Shown one piece after another: positions 991 through 64,000 of a stretch of 64,000 bases of DNA. The DNA comes from Rhodospirillales bacterium (GTDB lineage Bacteria > Pseudomonadota > Alphaproteobacteria > Bin95), in NCBI GenBank assembly GCA_038143065.1, contig JAYQLI010000035.1, positions 2,272,894 to 2,336,893 on the forward strand. Reading direction: 5' to 3'. Both the position numbers and the translations under genes were made by a program. Below the pieces are notes generated by a model. That model saw only the letters and a program-made list of their open reading frames with translations, was not told the origin of the DNA and searched no databases. Every line of letters starts with the position of its first letter. Position 1 is the first letter of the stretch.

Positions 991-3926
991 TTAGTTTGCG
1001 GGTCTTACCCTGCATAACAGTGACTTCAGGTTTGTTTGCTCCGATATCGGGCAGCGTTGGGTTTTATCAGTCAGAAAATTCACAGGCCGCCAAGGGTTAA
1101 ATGGTTGGCGCTCACCCCAACCAATAGGCAAAAAGACAGACGTCTTCCGCACTCCAGCTGTTATCCAAGCTCTAGCTTCCACTGACCCGTGAGCCGTTTC
1201 AACATGAACCTTTTGACCGTCACTAATTGAGAGGTCTGCAGCGACTTCTGGGTGTATTTGGCAATATAAATCTGGCCACATTTCTTGCGCCTGCCAAGCA
1301 TAATGCGTCCAGCTGTGAAAATGAGGTGCTGGGGGTCTACCTGTGACTAATTCCATGTTGAAGCCTTCGGCACGAAGTGCAGCTCAGGTCCCTCGGTATA
1401 ATTTTCGATCACACGAGCCCGAGGCGCATAAACACGACCTTTATTGAAGGCATTTTCAACGCCAACTTCTGAGTCATCATCTAAAAGTTCTAAGAAGGGC
1501 AGATCAATAAGTGCTTCTCGTTCCCCATAAAATTTTGGTAATGCAGTCATGCCGTGAACTTGAAACATTGATTCCTGTTTTTCAGTCCAAAATTCGAGTT
1601 TCCCCGATGGAGAGGGGAAGCGATTACCAACACGGGAGCCAACAGCAGTTGTGCCAGGTAGATAAAGAGTTTCTTTTTCCTCGTCTTCTTCAGAGCAGAC
1701 TGGAAATCTAACCCAACGATATGGTTTTTCGTGCAGTCGTTTTTGTGTGACGCCACGCATTTGCTCGGAGTCGATCATTGCCTCGTCCCAAAAACAGGCC
1801 GGGTCCTTCCATCTTTCTTTCAACACATCCTGATAGCCGAACCGTTTCCCAAGCTCGATCCAAATCCAGCCGTCTGGTTTTGCTTGGCCCGGGGGATCAA
1901 TCATTCGATCAATCCAAACGATCCGCCTGTCTTCGCAAGCCCTTCCTATTTCACCCTTTTCAATTCCTGTAGCAGCAGGAAGTACATAATCTGCCCATGC
2001 ACTGGTTTCGTTTGCAAAAATATCAATGTGCACAAGCAGTTCTAATGAAGCGAGTGCCTTCCGGCTTTCAGTCTGATCTGGCCACAGAGCCATTGGATTG
2101 TTGCATGTTATCAATGCCTTGAGTGGGTAAGGAAGGCCTTGGGTCATCGCTGCCGTCCAACCCGTTGGGCTGGTTCGAATGCGAGGGCGAGATATCGGCA
2201 TTCGGCGGTCAACAGGTGCATTAGCTTCTGCTGGCACAGATGCTGACATGTTGAAGTAAGCACCTCCCTTGCGACCCCAGTTTCCTGTGATTGCCGCTAT
2301 AAACATCAGTGCCCGGTTAGACTGCACTGAATTCATGTGCTGATTGATGCCTCGGCTGCCGAAAATTACGCAACCGTCTGCGGTGGCAATCTCTTCTGCC
2401 AGCTTCTTTATATCAGAAACTTTAATATCCGTTATCGGCGCGGCCCACTCCGGTGTATACCCTTGGGAAAAAATAAAATCGCGCCACTTTTCCCAACCTA
2501 TGACCCAGTCTTGGCAAAACTTAGCATCATGTAAATCGTTAGCTAGAATATGGTGGGCTATGGCCAGACTGAGAGCCATATCGCCTCCTGGTCTGATGGC
2601 TAAATGTTTGTCAGCCTTAGATGCTGTTACCGTAAAGCGAGGATCAACAACGACCATCTTAGCGCCTTTTTTGAGGCGCCAATCATTGATCATGCCAAAG
2701 TGAACGGGTCGGGTTTCCGCTTGATTGTCGCCGATGTAGACGTAAAGTTCAGCTGCTCCTAAATCATCCTCTACGTAACTATTGCCGGAGCCACCAACAC
2801 CTTGAACGAGGGTATATGCAATGTTTTTACCGCTTGAGCAGTAAGGTTCTGTTGTTTCAACGTTTGGCGTCCCCCACATTTGCGAGAAGATCCGGATATA
2901 GCCCTTGTTAGTTAATGTTCCTGTTCGTGTTCCTGTGAAAATTCCTAAGGCATCTGGTCCATATTTTTCGCGCACTCCAACCAGTTTGGCGGCAATTTCA
3001 TCTAGTGCTTGGTCCCAGGAGATAGGTTCAAAAACATTCTCTCCACGCGCGCCCACTCTTTTTAATGGAGTTTTTAGCCGATCTTTTGAGCCATAAAGCT
3101 GCAAAGTAAGTTGAGATTTTGGACAAACGCGGCCTTTGAGTTTTGGATCAGCAGGGTTGCCTGTGACTTTAACTAATTTGTTTCCCTTGAAATGGAAATT
3201 TGTTGTGCAAGCATTGAAGCAAATGTTGCAACCACCTGGTTCAATCCGGTCCGCCTCTCTTTCTTCCCGAGGCAGTCCATACGGAAAAGTGGTGACTTCA
3301 TCTTTTTGACTCCAGCCGGAGTCAGTGACTGCTGGGTTAGCCTTATCAGTGCTAGAAAAGTCACTTGCGACTTTTATGAGGCGATCCAAGTATATAGTCG
3401 CTGGACCCAACAACCATGGGTCGTAGTCTATTGATTGTCTGCCTTCTGCCTCAAATTCAGAAATCAGATCATCGCGATCGCCAAAGCGTATTGCGTTGGT
3501 GAGGCAGACCGCCTGACAAGCAGTAGTTAGATCCCCATTTGCGCGACGGTCATGGCACAAGTCGCATTTTACTGCATGGTGTCCCTCAGCATCAAAACCC
3601 ATGGCGCCATATGGACATGCAGCAACACATTCACCACAGCCAACACACCTGTTCTCGAGGACACTTACAACGCCTGTGTTGGGATCCTTAATGATTGCTT
3701 TGGGCTCCACTGGGCAGGCGCGCAGACAGGCTGGTCGTTCACACTGTTGGCAAGCTAATTTTAAAAAATCCAGGGATGCTGATCCATCATTGCTCTGGCC
3801 ACCAAGCCACAGAACGCGATTTCGGCGCTCACCTGGGCCAAGTCCGTGTTCTGCCTTGCAGGCTACTTCGCAACTTTTGCAGCCTGTGCATCGCTCAACA
3901 TCAATTAAAAGTGCAAGTCGGCTCAT
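991..3926 (-). CDS. DMSO-reductase-family molybdopterin oxidoreductase fused to an N-terminal DmsB/NrfC-like 4x[4Fe-4S] domain (frameshift near 1387)
   Basis: N-terminal CTGCKSCEVAC, CQQCERPAC, CVGCGECVAACPY and KCDLC; FS0 motif CNICFNAC...CPK; DRLKTPLKR, VVDPR, ADYVLPA; ORF 991..1356 is the C-terminal dinucleotide-binding domain (IHPEVAADL..DG). Confidence 0.9.
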
Positions 3927-3929
3927 AGA

Positions 3930-4720
3930 TCAGAAATCCAAAGCCAAAAAGTGGAACCAATAAGGTTCACCGCCATTTGCCGCGTACTTTGCGAAGAACA
4001 TGACAATAGCTATATGCAGAAATAGGCCAATAATAAACGCCCAAGCAAGTAATCTGTGTGACAGGCGCCAAAAGATTTGGGCGCGCGCGAGTTTTTCCTT
4101 AGCGCCCGTTAAACCCTCCTCTATTGCCGCTAGCCGGCGGTACCTGAACGCCTTTATGGGGGAGCGCAAGTAATGCTTGATTTTAAGAGAAAACTCAGCC
4201 TCCTGGGCGGAAGCTTCGATACTTTCTAAAAGAAAGCCTTTGCTTTGAATTATTTCATAAAGGCGTTGCCGCTTATCTGGATCTGCCGCTGCGAAGCCGC
4301 CGCGCTTTTCACCGAATGTCATTGACGCTAGCCGAGATCCTTTGGTGCGGCCCCAAAGTCCTAGAATAATAAGCCCCACTATCATCAGAAGCAGAATCGC
4401 AGGGGGCGACTGAGGTTCTGAATACTATGTGACAGGACAAGGGAACTCCCAATACTCGCTAACCAAACATGCAGGCGAAAGCCATATTTGCCTGGACCGC
4501 CAAAGCGTTTTGCTAGGACTGCTACAAAAGATGAAAGTAGCAAAAGAGCTCCAAGCACAGCCGCAGATTGTAGAATTGGGCCGCCAGATTTTCCCCATTC
4601 ATTAGGTAAAGAGGATGTTATGATTGAAAAAAACACGCCACCAATCAGCGACAGTATTACAATCGTTTTTAGTGAGCGGTTAGGTAAATCTAAACTCTTT
4701 TTAGACCCAACAGGTTTCAA
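3930..4720 (-). CDS. Polytopic membrane protein with four transmembrane His residues, possible heme-b anchor (frameshift near 4403)
   Basis: ORFs 4385..4720 and 3930..4385 join if one C is added to a C-run; hydrophobic helices carry FRLHVW, LSHS, WRLSHR and FLHI. Confidence 0.65.
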
Positions 4721-60138: not shown

Positions 60139-60210
60139 GATTAAAATGAGGCCATTCCAACAACTGGCAGGTCGTGGCATGCTTTCTAAATAAATCAAGG
60201 AGGAACTTTG

Positions 60211-61044
60211 ATGCCTGATAACGCCATTTTCCCCGAGCCCACACCGCTCGAAGCTCACCCCGACTATGAACCAGTTTCTGCTGCTGAGTTGGTAGAGCTC
60301 AATGACCGGCTCAATGTTTGTTTAAAGTTGCGCACCCTGGCTATTGGAATGAAGCAATTTCGTTCTTTAGAGGAAATGAACCAGGTAAAAGGTTTAAGAC
60401 GGCCCATGGAGGGGCGTCGCCACACCATGTGCCAGCTGGTTACTCAGAGCCGCATGGCAGGGTTTACTCTTGGAGTAACTGCGGAGAACGTCCGCCCTAA
60501 TGGTAATTGTGGAGGTGTTCACGGTATCGACCTCCCTGATGAAGGGACACTAGATGGTTCTCATATGACTGGAGTTTGGTTTGAGAATCAGACAGCGGCA
60601 GCAGCGCATCAGGAGCATATGCCGCGTCAGGTATATGGCACCTATGTAGCAACAGTAGTCTCTCCAATTCGGGCAGGGCGATTAGATCCTCCCGACATAG
60701 TTATGTTCTATGGTACCCCAGCCCAGATCATCATTTTCGTTAATGGCCTGCAGAATAAGAGGTATCGCCGTTATGACATGTCCATCACTGGCGAAAGTGC
60801 GTGTGCTGATAGCTGGGGCAAGGCTTTACTAACAAAGGATACCTCTATTTCTATCCCTTGCTTTGCAGAACGCCGTTATGGCGGTGTGGCTGATGATGAG
60901 TTGCTAATTGCAATGCCACCACACGAATTTAAGCGAGGCGTTGAAGGAATGGAGACCTTATCTAAAGTTGGTCTCCGTTACCCTATTCCACCTTATGGAC
61001 CTCATGCAGATCCATCGGAGGGAATGGGAAAATCCTATGGCTAA
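60211..61044 (+). CDS. DUF169-like protein
   Basis: CQLV..SR, PDIVMFYGTPAQ, ESACAD, PCFAERRYGG..DDEL; AGGAGG RBS. Confidence 0.75.
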   Translation: MPDNAIFPEPTPLEAHPDYEPVSAAELVELNDRLNVCLKLRTLAIGMKQFRSLEEMNQVKGLRRPMEGRRHTMCQLVTQSRMAGFTLGVTAENVRPNGNCGGVHGIDLPDEGTLDGSHMTGVWFENQTAAAAHQEHMPRQVYGTYVATVVSPIRAGRLDPPDIVMFYGTPAQIIIFVNGLQNKRYRRYDMSITGESACADSWGKALLTKDTSISIPCFAERRYGGVADDELLIAMPPHEFKRGVEGMETLSKVGLRYPIPPYGPHADPSEGMGKSYG

Positions 61045-62040
61045 TACTGCTCGGCCGACCACCCGTCGTTTGCAGCAAATGGTGCGTGCTTACCGTGAAG
61101 CGGGCGCCCTGATGGCTGCAGTGGAGCTCGACCTTTTTACTCATATAGCCAGCGGGGCAGATGATGAGTCATCTCTGACCAAAGCTATGGGACTCCAGCC
61201 GCTTCATGGCGAAAGAATCATCATAGCGATGCTTGGGCTTGGTCTTTTGGAACGAACGGCCGGCAAGCTCACACTTGCTGACGACGTCGAGCGATTTTTA
61301 GTGAAAGGTAAAGCAAGCTATGCCGGCGAGTGGATGCTATTTACCAAACCTGATTGGGACGATTGGGGAAAATTATCGGAAATTTTAAAAGAAAAAGCTC
61401 CTCCGGTATTGGAGAATAAGACTGTTGCGGGGATTACTGTCCAAGAGGCTAGACGCTATCACCGAGGAACATACTCGATTGGACGTGGTGCTGGTCGACT
61501 ATTTCTTAATCAGGTTGATCTCACGGGCAAAAAACTGTTGATGGATATTGGAGGGGGTCGGGCGCCTATTGTATTGAGGCTTGCAAGCGCTACCCGGATC
61601 TCAAGGCTGTTGTCTTAGAAATGCCTGCTGTGGTGCCGGTTACTCAAGAATTTATAGATGAGAGTGGCCTTGCTAATCGAATTGAGGCTCGAGTTTGTGA
61701 TTTCAATCATGATCCTTTCCCTGAGGGAGCAGATATAGCCGTTATGGCATCTAACTTGCCTATGTATGGTCGAGAAGCGATTGGAGCCGTTGTGCACAAG
61801 GCTTATAACGCGATGGCTCCGGGAGGGACATTTCACCTGATTGGCGAAGCTCTAGACGCAAGTCGATCTGGCCCTTCAGACCCTGCCCTTTGGGGGCTGG
61901 CCCAGGCTATTAACAACACTACAGGAATTGCGCACTCAGTTTCTGAAGTTGAGGACTACCTTTCATTAGCTGGCTTCACCAATGTAGAGACAACTCAATT
62001 TGTAGAAGGGATTTTGCAGAGAACTAGTGGACAAAAATAG
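61037..62040 (+). CDS. SAM-dependent methyltransferase with N-terminal dimerisation domain (frameshift near 61555)
   Basis: AAVELDLF, MDIGGG(S)G, L(E)MP.V, DF, PGG. Confidence 0.85.
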
Positions 62041-62061
62041 TCGCTCTCGGTGTCTTTCCAG

Positions 62062-62935
62062 TTAGATATCCCGTTTTGGCAAGGCCCGTCTGTAATCTCT
62101 GCGGCGTTCCCCTACAGCCTTAAGGCTTGCGGCGTTGCTGTCATTTACTCGGTTATAAATAGCTCGCCAGTCAGGGTCTCCAGGCCACTCGAATGGAGCG
62201 CGTTTTATGGTTCCATGCTCAGTTGCTTGCTCTAATAATTGAACAGCTAATCTCGAGATTTCTAGCTGCATTTTGCGATTATAGGGAGCTCCCATGGGGT
62301 TTCCGAGAGGGAAGTCTACAAACAAACAGCGGGCTACGCCGCAATGTTCCACTATATCTTTAGCAGAACCAACAACTACTGTTGGAATGCCGTTTCTTTC
62401 AAGATGGTGTGCAGTCAGACTCACGGTCTGGTGACACACTGGTCATAAAGGTACTAATAGGGCGGCATCGGCATGGTCTGAGATAACGCGAGAAAGAATT
62501 TCGGGCGCATCGTGCTCAATAGTCGTCCTGTGGCTGTACACCGTCGGCACACTATGAAATTTTGCACTTATGCCCTTAATAAGGCCTTCATATTTAAGCG
62601 TTTGTAATGCATTGATGGGGAGGTAGCTCTCTGTCTCTGGTATGAGTACTTTCTTTGTCCCAAGCAAGATTCTCATTGTAAAGCCTCTTTGGCGCGCTAG
62701 AGCCTTCGGTGGCCCCGGACCATACTTCCTTTGGAGGTGCATTCCCGGGTGGTGACCAGTTGCCTGGTGGTGCTGAGGTTACAACTATTGATATCTGAGT
62801 CTCTGTGAGAGAATTTTTTAGATGGGCGAACGGCTGTCCGTCATTACGAGCCCAGCGATAGTCGCGTTCGTATCAGAGAGCCCGGTAGTATTGACGGGTT
62901 CGTTCTATGTATCGAACAGAGGATTGATCATTCAT
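62062..62935 (-). CDS. Glycine/sarcosine/betaine/D-proline reductase selenoprotein-B-like protein; putative Sec at TGA 62443-62445
   Basis: In-frame LLVPL-TGA-PVCHQTVSLTAHHLERNGIPTV...DFPLGNP; N-terminus MNDQSSVRYIERTRQYY; also a TGA at 62873-62875 (Gly expected) and a frameshift near 62632. Confidence 0.8.
62412..62441 (-). promoter_or_regulatory. Putative bacterial SECIS element
   Basis: mRNA 3' of the UGA reads CCAGUGUGUCAC-CAGAC-CGUGA-GUCUG-ACUG: 5-bp upper stem, loop beginning 18 nt after the UGA with G at loop position 2, lower CAGU/ACUG pairing. Confidence 0.65.
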
Positions 62936-63023
62936 CAGAATATAATACTTCAAACAATTGATTTGCTCTAACGAAAATATTTTGCACCCTAGCGTCTAAA
63001 ACTTAATGTTTATATGTGCTTAG

Positions 63024-64000
63024 ATGAGTAAATCATTCCGAAGCTCAGGGATTTGTCCAATTAAATTTCCAGAATCAGATGGTATTCTGCACCTGTATCA
63101 AAAAACGCGTGCAGCAACTTTAGACCTTATATCAGGACTTGGGCCGGAAGATGTAACGCCTCAGTCTATGGAAGATGCCAGCCCGACGAAGTGGCATCTC
63201 GCTCATGTAAGTTGGTTTTTTGAAGAGTTTCTGCTCCGGGCTCATGCTCCTAGTTACAGGGTATTAGATGAAAGGTTTCGCTATCTCTTTAACTCTTACT
63301 ATGTGCAAGCAGGTCCGCGTTACGCGCGACCAGATCGTGGCTTGATAACACGGCCGACGTTGAAAGAAGTTTTGGCTTATCGAGAGCATGTTGATAATGC
63401 GATGACCAATTTCATTAAATCGGGAGATGCGCCACTGGATATAGTCGAACTTGGTTGTCATCACGAAATGCAGCACCAAGAATTAATACTCACCGACTTA
63501 TTGCATCTTCTATCACAAAACCCCCTTAATCCAATTTACAGAGATCAAAAGAAAGTTGATCCAATTACAACACCAGCACCCTCATGGCTGGAGTACGAGG
63601 GTGGCATGGTTGAAATAGGACACTTGGGGACAAAATTTGCTTTTGATTGTGAAGGTCCTCGGCACAGCACATTTCTCCAGCCGTATCGGCTTTCTTCACA
63701 TCTAGTCACTAATGCCGATTGGTTGAGGTTTATAGATGATGGGGGTACCAGGATCCCCGATACTGGTTATCTGATGGCTGGGCAAAAGCCCAACAGGAAT
63801 GCTGGGAAGCTCCCTTATATTGGCGGAGAGATGAAACTTCATGGAACATATTTGGATTATCTGGCGTTCAGCCTTTAAACTTTGATGCCCCCGTTTGTCA
63901 CATAAGCTTCTATGAAGCTGATGCTTATGCTTCTTGGGCAGGTAAACGCTTACCTACTGAAATTGAATGGGAGGCTGCCTCCCCAACAACTATCAAAGGT
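63024..64000 (+). CDS. egtB: Ergothioneine biosynthesis sulfoxide synthase EgtB (frameshift near 63745; runs off the window)
   Basis: [32 protein letters not shown], and FGE-domain [10 protein letters not shown]...RLPTE.EWE in the shifted frame. Confidence 0.88.

Follow-up and report, generated by a model that had tools for sequence, protein, structure and literature searches.

Does the in-frame TGA codon within a gene resembling grdB and prdB specify selenocysteine (Sec), or is it a lesion in a gene that, as assembled, seems to be broken in several places? The gene in question occupies positions 62062..62935 on the minus strand of a 64,000-nucleotide stretch (hereafter the window) from a Rhodospirillales bacterium (assembly GCA_038143065.1, contig JAYQLI010000035.1); our annotation covered the part of the window from 60208 to 64000. 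An original prediction, made from the letters of the window, had proposed a stand-alone selenoprotein gene of high novelty, followed by a selenocysteine insertion sequence (SECIS)-like hairpin and carrying a second TGA. We find that it is very likely an intact selenoprotein gene, with a predicted Sec at the UGA of 62445-62443, that has been damaged by this assembly.

Two breaks in the gene are private to the assembly

The gene extends on the minus strand from an ATG at 62935 to a TAA stop at 62064-62062, as delimited by its reading frames and an alignment of 38 homologues, and has a length of ~291 codons once two private assembly errors are allowed for. The frame that begins at the ATG reads MNDQSSVRYIERTRQYYRAL, meets a TGA at 62875-62873 and goes onward to ...WDKESTHTRDRELPPHQ. 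In the other frame, an open reading frame (ORF) at 62742..62443 (minus) stops at the TGA of 62445-62443, and a further ORF at 62439..62062 continues in the same frame. The proposal that these two ORFs are a single frame split only by this TGA, giving VPL-U-PVCHQ, is confirmed. The span 62062-62935 had also been taken as a single frame, which does not hold for this assembly: the ATG at 62935 and the ORF that starts at 62742 lie in different frames, and there is therefore a frameshift near 62626, previously unnoticed, that separates ...THTRDRE from SYLPINALQ....

To place these breaks, we compared positions 61600-63400 of the window with Logan contigs from four public runs (X1, X5, X6 and X8), each from a different study. 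At position 62875, all four runs have C in place of the A of the window, so that the false stop TGA (62873..62875, minus) is in nature GGA, encoding Gly21 of the motif RALGY. All four also carry a CT (plus strand) inserted behind 62626 that restores DRE-SY-LP, marking a private 2-bp deletion at 62626..62627 (minus; the coding strand lacks an AG within an AG-rich run). The homologues point the same way: the first TGA aligns with a near-invariant Gly of RALGY, and the sequences read DRE[ST][FY]LP with no gap at the frame change. A closely related locus, L021, from a metagenome-assembled genome (MAG) labelled Rhodospirillales, is 95.5% identical to the window over 5.9 kb and holds an intact orthologue (3701..4576; 291 codons) in which Gly21, DRESYLP and the TGA of the proposed Sec codon are all present.

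Further substitutions common to all four runs were found at 62115, 62327, 62334, 62961, 63076 and 63093, partly outside the gene. In total, the window differs from all four runs by seven substitutions and the 2-bp deletion and therefore carries about eight private errors in 1.8 kb, which bears out an earlier suspicion that the contig contains substitution errors. The four all-run substitutions inside the gene are all non-synonymous and fall at conserved residues; for example, the run bases at 62334 and 62327 turn the A and C of the window into the P and F of GVPRF, which are present in most homologues and in L021. Run X1 is otherwise near-identical to the window, with three of its four contigs at least 99% alike. 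Errors private to this assembly account for both the frameshift near 62626 and the TGA at 62875-62873; this second TGA, which had seemed an unexplained feature of the gene, is GGA in four of four runs and a near-invariant Gly in homologues.

The TGA at 62445-62443 is retained in independent data

Two independent metagenome runs from different studies, X6 and X8, cover the proposed Sec codon. All 17 differences between the window and record 9 of X6 (62173-62811), and all 25 between the window and record 17 of X8 (61789-62811), are accounted for, and none falls at 62443-62445. The TGA is also kept in L021. An earlier caveat had been that a TGC>TGA substitution at this codon was possible; X6, X8 and L021 all argue otherwise. 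The frame beyond the TGA seems to have been maintained as well. Listed strain differences inside the gene include 13 that are synonymous, 4 of these downstream of the TGA, and the window and L021 differ downstream of the TGA at 11 synonymous and 9 non-synonymous codons out of 128. From these strain and L021 differences, it follows that the frame beyond the TGA is under selection.

Public runs bearing the stretch include estuary and marine metagenomes, and the RNA runs X15-X20 contain about 0.21 of the sampled words of the stretch. An extra, deeper contig of X8 matches the window only at 62409-62445, that is, over 37 bases comprising the TGA and the core of the hairpin, and diverges on both sides; another organism in the X8 sample thus appears to carry an identical TGA-hairpin core.

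Selenocysteine and cysteine alternate among relatives

The UGA (62443..62445, minus) corresponds to residue 165 of the L021 orthologue, opens the motif U-P-V-C-H-Q and aligns with a conserved Cys. In the 38-homologue alignment, the TGA column is Cys in most sequences, where it forms the first Cys of CPVCHQT. Two homologues (P0024 and P0042) show W in the Sec column and a third (P0050) is a 125-amino-acid fragment that starts right after it. A W at a TGA, or a protein start just after one, is a typical product of gene callers.

We also scanned genomes, one per species, and used the best 80 of 521 confirmed loci. The codon before PVCHQ is TGA in 26 of these, TGC in 39 and TGT in 15. An alignment of homologues had been proposed as a check on the original prediction, and the alternation it was meant to reveal is indeed present (26 TGA and 54 Cys forms among the 80 loci). 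Judging by record titles, TGA forms come from MAGs of Hyphomicrobiaceae, Pseudohongiella, Pseudomonadales, Azotimanducaceae, Myxococcota, Acidimicrobiales, Chloroflexia and Rokuibacteriota, among others. Little or no variation is seen at C168, H169, Q170 and the DFPLG motif across 81 aligned sequences. C168, which is invariant in this set, is encoded by the UGU at 62434..62436 (minus) and is the Cys of UxxC, presumably the resolving cysteine.

A SECIS-like hairpin distinguishes TGA forms from Cys forms

A SECIS-like hairpin at 62407..62439 (minus) was delimited by folding and by comparison of TGA forms with Cys forms. It consists of a 6-bp lower stem (62439-62434/62412-62407), within which the UGU at 62434-62436 falls, a 3x3 internal loop and a 5-bp upper stem (62430-62426/62420-62416; CAGAC/GUCUG) closed by the apical loop CGUGA (62425-62421), which starts 17 nt after the UGA. 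The element CAGAC-CGUGA-GUCUG at 62430-62416 had been noted before, and it forms the top of the minimum-free-energy fold (-13.5 kcal/mol for the 54 nt from 62448). The arrangement, a stem-loop directly 3′ of the UGA with a small, G-containing loop, is that worded in excerpts of a survey of Sargasso Sea selenoproteins (PMC1088965).

For comparison across the family, the 48 nt from the codon onwards were aligned without gaps for 27 TGA sequences (the window and 26 loci) and 54 Cys sequences, and a fixed structure of seven upper and two lower pairs was counted on both alignments. Given the higher G+C content of the Cys forms, we used base-pair counts instead of energy. Pairing is found in 95.9% of cells of the TGA set, where the covariation score was reached by 0 of 500 shuffles; pair 18-28 is GC in 20 sequences, AU in 7 and unpaired in none, and pair 15-31 is CG in 22, UA in 3 and unpaired in 2. 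The Cys set is paired in 80.0% of cells, no better than shuffles, with pair 19-27 formed in just 7 of 54 sequences. An intact 5-bp upper stem is present in all 27 TGA forms versus 4 of 54 Cys forms (Fisher p = 1.4e-17, a value that overstates independence because the sequences are related). As read from these alignments, neither the compensatory changes nor the contrast to the Cys forms is undone by this kinship, and the SECIS-like character of the element proposed earlier gains support from both its conservation in TGA forms and its compensatory pairs.

The same contrast extends to the loop and to codon choice. The loop CGUGA is found in 23 of 27 TGA forms versus 4 of 54 Cys forms, the Ser codon AGT in 24 of 27 versus 5 of 54, and the Val codon GTG in 25 of 27 versus 9 of 54. 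The two sets thus differ in Ser AGU versus AGC, in Val GUG versus GUC and in Gln CAG/CAA paired with Leu CUG/UUG. As the contrast is confined to synonymous sites, the peptide does not account for it. Together, the 27 TGA and 54 Cys forms give a family-specific SECIS signature that could be used for annotating the family.

In four Cys forms (L024, L035, L066 and L080) the SECIS-type upper stem is still complete, and in L024 the CGUGA loop is present as well. Two of them, L024 and L035, come from Bradyrhizobium records; the other two, L066 (Bradyrhizobium sp.) and L080 (uncultured Alphaproteobacteria), come from MAGs. These stem-bearing Cys forms suggest recent replacement of Sec by Cys.

The host genome encodes the selenocysteine machinery and two further TGA-bearing paralogues

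The host genome (4.63 Mb in 52 contigs, 97.6% complete) was searched for the Sec pathway, as the original prediction had advised, and selA (496 bits), selB (435), selD (280) and tRNA-Sec (71.5) were all found, each above its cut-off; the tRNA-Sec has the anticodon TCA (UCA). Among genomes tested from the family, selA scored above the cut-off in five of five with TGA forms and in two of five with Cys forms. In this assembly, selA itself (C35:594751-596061) has one internal TAA, and the adjoining selB is open; the TAA is probably the same kind of assembly error and not a sign of a broken Sec pathway. The genome also encodes a haem-copper oxidase subunit I (COX1), in keeping with the earlier view of the host as an aerobe, and oxygen respiration is possible.

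Nor is the gene the only one of its kind here: the genome contains two more GRDB-like genes with an in-frame TGA. The first, at C35:1681328 (minus), has its TGA in ...VAVLAAN-U-PVCHQTVCLIARALEQ..., giving AAN-U-PVCHQ. It belongs to a 'PN-C-PVCHQ' subgroup annotated as 'glycine reductase' and has a similar CAGAC..GUCUG hairpin after the TGA. The other, at C35:2092875-2093273 (minus), matches PF07355 with 35.9 bits and has its TGA in ...LLLPV-U-PNCTRAVC...; with read-through of the TGA its ORF reaches up to 441 amino acids, with a long C-terminal extension, and a small hairpin follows the TGA.

The protein is probably a distant relative of PrdB and GrdB

The best NCBIfam match, for the piece of the gene from 62742 down, is to PrdB (TIGR04483; E = 1.3e-17), and models for GrdH, GrdF and GrdB also match, weakly. 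Two homologues, P0001 and P0039, pass the cut-off of the Pfam family GRDB (PF07355) with 32.4 and 30.7 bits versus 22, and some cluster representatives have a precomputed PF07355 match. In a large protein collection, 1281 relatives were found at E <= 0.001 among 1645 candidates, most of them 280-330 amino acids long, and their source names are 'D-proline reductase PrdB', 'glycine reductase' or hypothetical. The assignment to PrdB/GrdB relatives with a U-x-x-C motif, made in the original prediction, is thus upheld by the TIGR04483 match and by the homologues that exceed the PF07355 cut-off.

An AlphaFold2 model of the L021 protein, a 93%-identical orthologue, was built with 80 homologues and has a mean predicted local distance difference test score (pLDDT) of 92.3 and a predicted template modelling score (pTM) of 0.91. 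In this model, Sec165 lies between strand 158-162 and helix 166-181, just before the helix, and Cys168 lies in its first turn, a predicted placement typical of redox-active UxxC pairs.

Neighbourhoods were clustered from stop-to-stop ORFs across 81 loci, a noisy procedure in which ORFs antisense to the gene gave rise to large clusters. Leaving aside the gene and the ORFs that overlap it, at most 6 of the 27 TGA loci share any one neighbouring ORF cluster. The gene therefore stands alone, with no conserved partner beside it across loci, as had been proposed from the window. The largest clusters, an enoyl-CoA hydratase (6 of 27 TGA loci) and a short-chain dehydrogenase (5 of 27), were considered as partners and rejected. 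Partner subunits were sought in the whole genome as well: PF09338 (GrdE/PrdA) gave no match, but its positive control was also silent in 14 of 14 genomes, and PF04723 (GrdA) gave none, with a positive control that was likewise silent.

Proposed mechanism and competing explanations

Putting these observations together, we propose that SelB loaded with Sec-tRNA-Sec would bind the hairpin as the ribosome nears the UGA and would insert selenocysteine, yielding an alpha/beta protein of ~291 amino acids. By homology with PrdB and GrdB, its selenolate would make the nucleophilic attack in a reductive reaction. The adduct would then be resolved by Cys168 to a selenenyl-sulfide, which a dithiol donor would re-reduce.

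Several results weigh against this proposal. For the codon itself, 2 differences in X1 and 9 in X5 are unlisted, so that the TGA of these two runs is not strictly proven. For the hairpin, fold energy by itself does not reach significance (z = -1.58, with 12 of 200 shuffles folding equally well), and the mean fold energy over 54 nt is alike in TGA and Cys forms (-17.6 versus -18.0 kcal/mol, p = 0.65). The stem of the window and L021 holds five of the seven upper pairs of most TGA forms, and an Rfam scan of 62300-62500 with E values up to 10 returned no SECIS family, its three matches being at chance level. For the protein, NCBIfam scores fall far under their cut-offs (PrdB, 64 versus 300 bits; TIGR01918, 27.9 versus 65.45 bits), and Pfam at E = 0.01 gives no family for either the pieces in the window or the intact L021 protein. 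A sequence search of the PDB gave 0 matches at E = 1, and none of the 500 matches listed by Foldseek against the PDB reached E <= 0.001; those matches are to generic alpha/beta binding-protein folds with template modelling (TM) scores of 0.2-0.3, the best about 0.3. As neither a sequence nor a fold relative was found in the PDB, the catalytic scheme is drawn by analogy with PrdB and GrdB only.

Taken at face value, the window could be read as holding a decaying pseudogene, in which both TGAs and the frameshift are genuine lesions and which yields no full-length protein. The window as assembled does have two in-frame TGAs and one frameshift, its neighbours are also broken (the O-methyltransferase is split and the EgtB-like gene ends early) and selA has its internal TAA. 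This is nonetheless highly improbable, as GGA stands at 62873-62875 in four of four runs, which also carry the two missing bases, and X1, nearly identical to the window otherwise, has neither break. Moreover, the L021 orthologue and its neighbours are intact, differences between strains are mostly synonymous, and the private differences strike invariant residues, as random errors would. Alternatively, the TGA at 62443-62445 might be a misread TGC or TGT in an ordinary Cys protein: substitution errors run at roughly 4 per kb in this part of the assembly, and Cys forms are in the majority (54 of 80 loci). We find this barely credible, given that the X6 and X8 contigs and L021 keep the TGA, that the window has the hairpin and the AGU and GUG codons typical of TGA forms, and that Sec machinery and two further TGA-bearing paralogues are encoded in the genome.

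A different question is whether the protein could be the B subunit of a true D-proline, glycine, sarcosine or betaine reductase, with PrdA/GrdE, GrdA and GrdC/D encoded elsewhere in the genome. Its best family matches are the PrdB, GrdH, GrdF and GrdB models, and public annotation names homologues 'D-proline reductase PrdB' or 'glycine reductase'; however, all scores lie far under the equivalog cut-offs, PF09338 and PF04723 are without a genome match (a weak point, with the controls silent), no ORF cluster accompanies more than 6 of the 27 TGA loci and the neighbours in the window recur in 1 of 80 loci (L021). The organism also has a haem-copper oxidase. We therefore consider a reductase subunit of this kind very unlikely and, from its sequence relationships, read the product of the intact Sec-encoding gene as a distant, stand-alone branch of the GrdB/PrdB superfamily and not as a Stickland-type proline or glycine reductase subunit.

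Relation to known selenoproteins

Proteins of this kind have been counted in the sea before. Excerpts of the 2005 Sargasso Sea survey rank 'Proline reductase (PrdB)' third in abundance among the known families, with 42 selenoprotein sequences and a UXXC motif (PMC1088965). Excerpts of the 2008 Global Ocean Sampling (GOS) survey give 'Proline reductase PrdB' (family pfam07355, motif UxxC) 235 selenoproteins across 38 samples, along with 110 Cys homologues, and place PrdB among the top three selenoprotein families of many samples (PMC2398784). In the available part of a 2021 marine survey, proline reductase makes up 6.4% of selenoprotein genes (PMC9402790). Insofar as these excerpts describe it, the marine 'PrdB' family (PMC1088965, PMC2398784), which abounds in oxic surface waters of the sea, shares with the protein studied here a marine or estuary habitat, a relationship to PrdB/GRDB and the UxxC motif, and Sec and Cys alternate here also. 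From habitat, Pfam family, motif and abundance, we infer that the marine survey 'PrdB' is the UPVCHQ subfamily of ~290 amino acids. On that reading, the gene is a further case of a selenoprotein kind known in marine bacteria since 2005, and the high novelty first claimed for it gives way to the PrdB selenoproteins (pfam07355, UxxC) that excerpts of the 2005, 2008 and 2021 surveys report.

The clostridial proteins are more distant. Like clostridial PrdB (TIGR04483), the protein has UxxC, and its residues 38-186 match profile positions 85-234 of 238. Unlike it, the protein reaches just 64 of the 300 bits required, has ~100 extra N-terminal residues, is surrounded by no prd operon and belongs to a host that can respire oxygen. 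To GrdB, GrdF and GrdH (PF07355, TIGR01918), there are weak matches in the C-terminal third of their roughly 435 amino acids; the protein here is ~145 residues shorter and scores 27.9 versus 65.45 bits with TIGR01918. A UxxC motif is listed for GrdB too; in an excerpt of a 2026 review, the motif of GrdB is given as UxxCxxC, whereas here it is UPVCHQ, with no third Cys. Closer are Cys homologues from Bradyrhizobium, Pelagibius, Belnapia, Burkholderiales and Acidimicrobiia, annotated 'glycine reductase' or 'hypothetical protein', which have the same length, the CPVCHQT and DFPLGN motifs and 41-55% identity to the L021 orthologue. They differ from the present protein in lacking its Sec, and the hairpin is lost in 50 of 54 Cys forms.

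It is possible, and we suggest it tentatively, that the U-P-V-C-H-Q proteins that stand alone in aerobic bacteria of sea and soil are not proline or glycine reductase subunits but autonomous selenoenzymes whose substrate and reductant are not yet described. If so, the 'proline reductase' label would be a misnomer for a very abundant marine selenoprotein family, and the host genome would have three such Sec-containing paralogues. Recognition of the gene points to the use of a predicted selenocysteine by this aerobic marine alphaproteobacterium in at least three GRDB-like proteins. Such a gene is split or dropped by gene callers when they reach its UGA; in the present case, a false stop and a frameshift introduced by the assembly come on top, and annotation would therefore show fragments or a pseudogene.

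Neighbouring genes

In the window, the gene is neighboured by egtB, egtD, an O-methyltransferase gene and a DUF169 gene. A scan for promoters and terminators gave no more than shuffles give. The head-to-head arrangement of egtD (PF10017, 337 bits) and egtB with the gene is found in the lineage of L021 (1331-3612) only, that is, in 1 of 80 loci. A conserved link to ergothioneine was considered and rejected, as tblastn searches with the EgtB, EgtD, O-methyltransferase and DUF169 proteins of L021 against the 80 loci returned L021 only; the placement beside egtB and egtD remains a speculative functional lead for this lineage.

Two of these neighbours are broken in the window. The O-methyltransferase gene is split into ORFs at 60908..61618 and 61621..62040 (plus), and the EgtB-like gene (DinB_2 and FGE-sulfatase domains; region 63024-64000, plus) ends early at 63878. 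The private substitutions at 62961, 63076 and 63093 fall in the region of the EgtB-like gene or beside it. Both breaks look like further assembly errors: in L021, the neighbours egtB (about 410-434 amino acids), egtD, the O-methyltransferase gene (377 amino acids) and the DUF169 gene are all intact.

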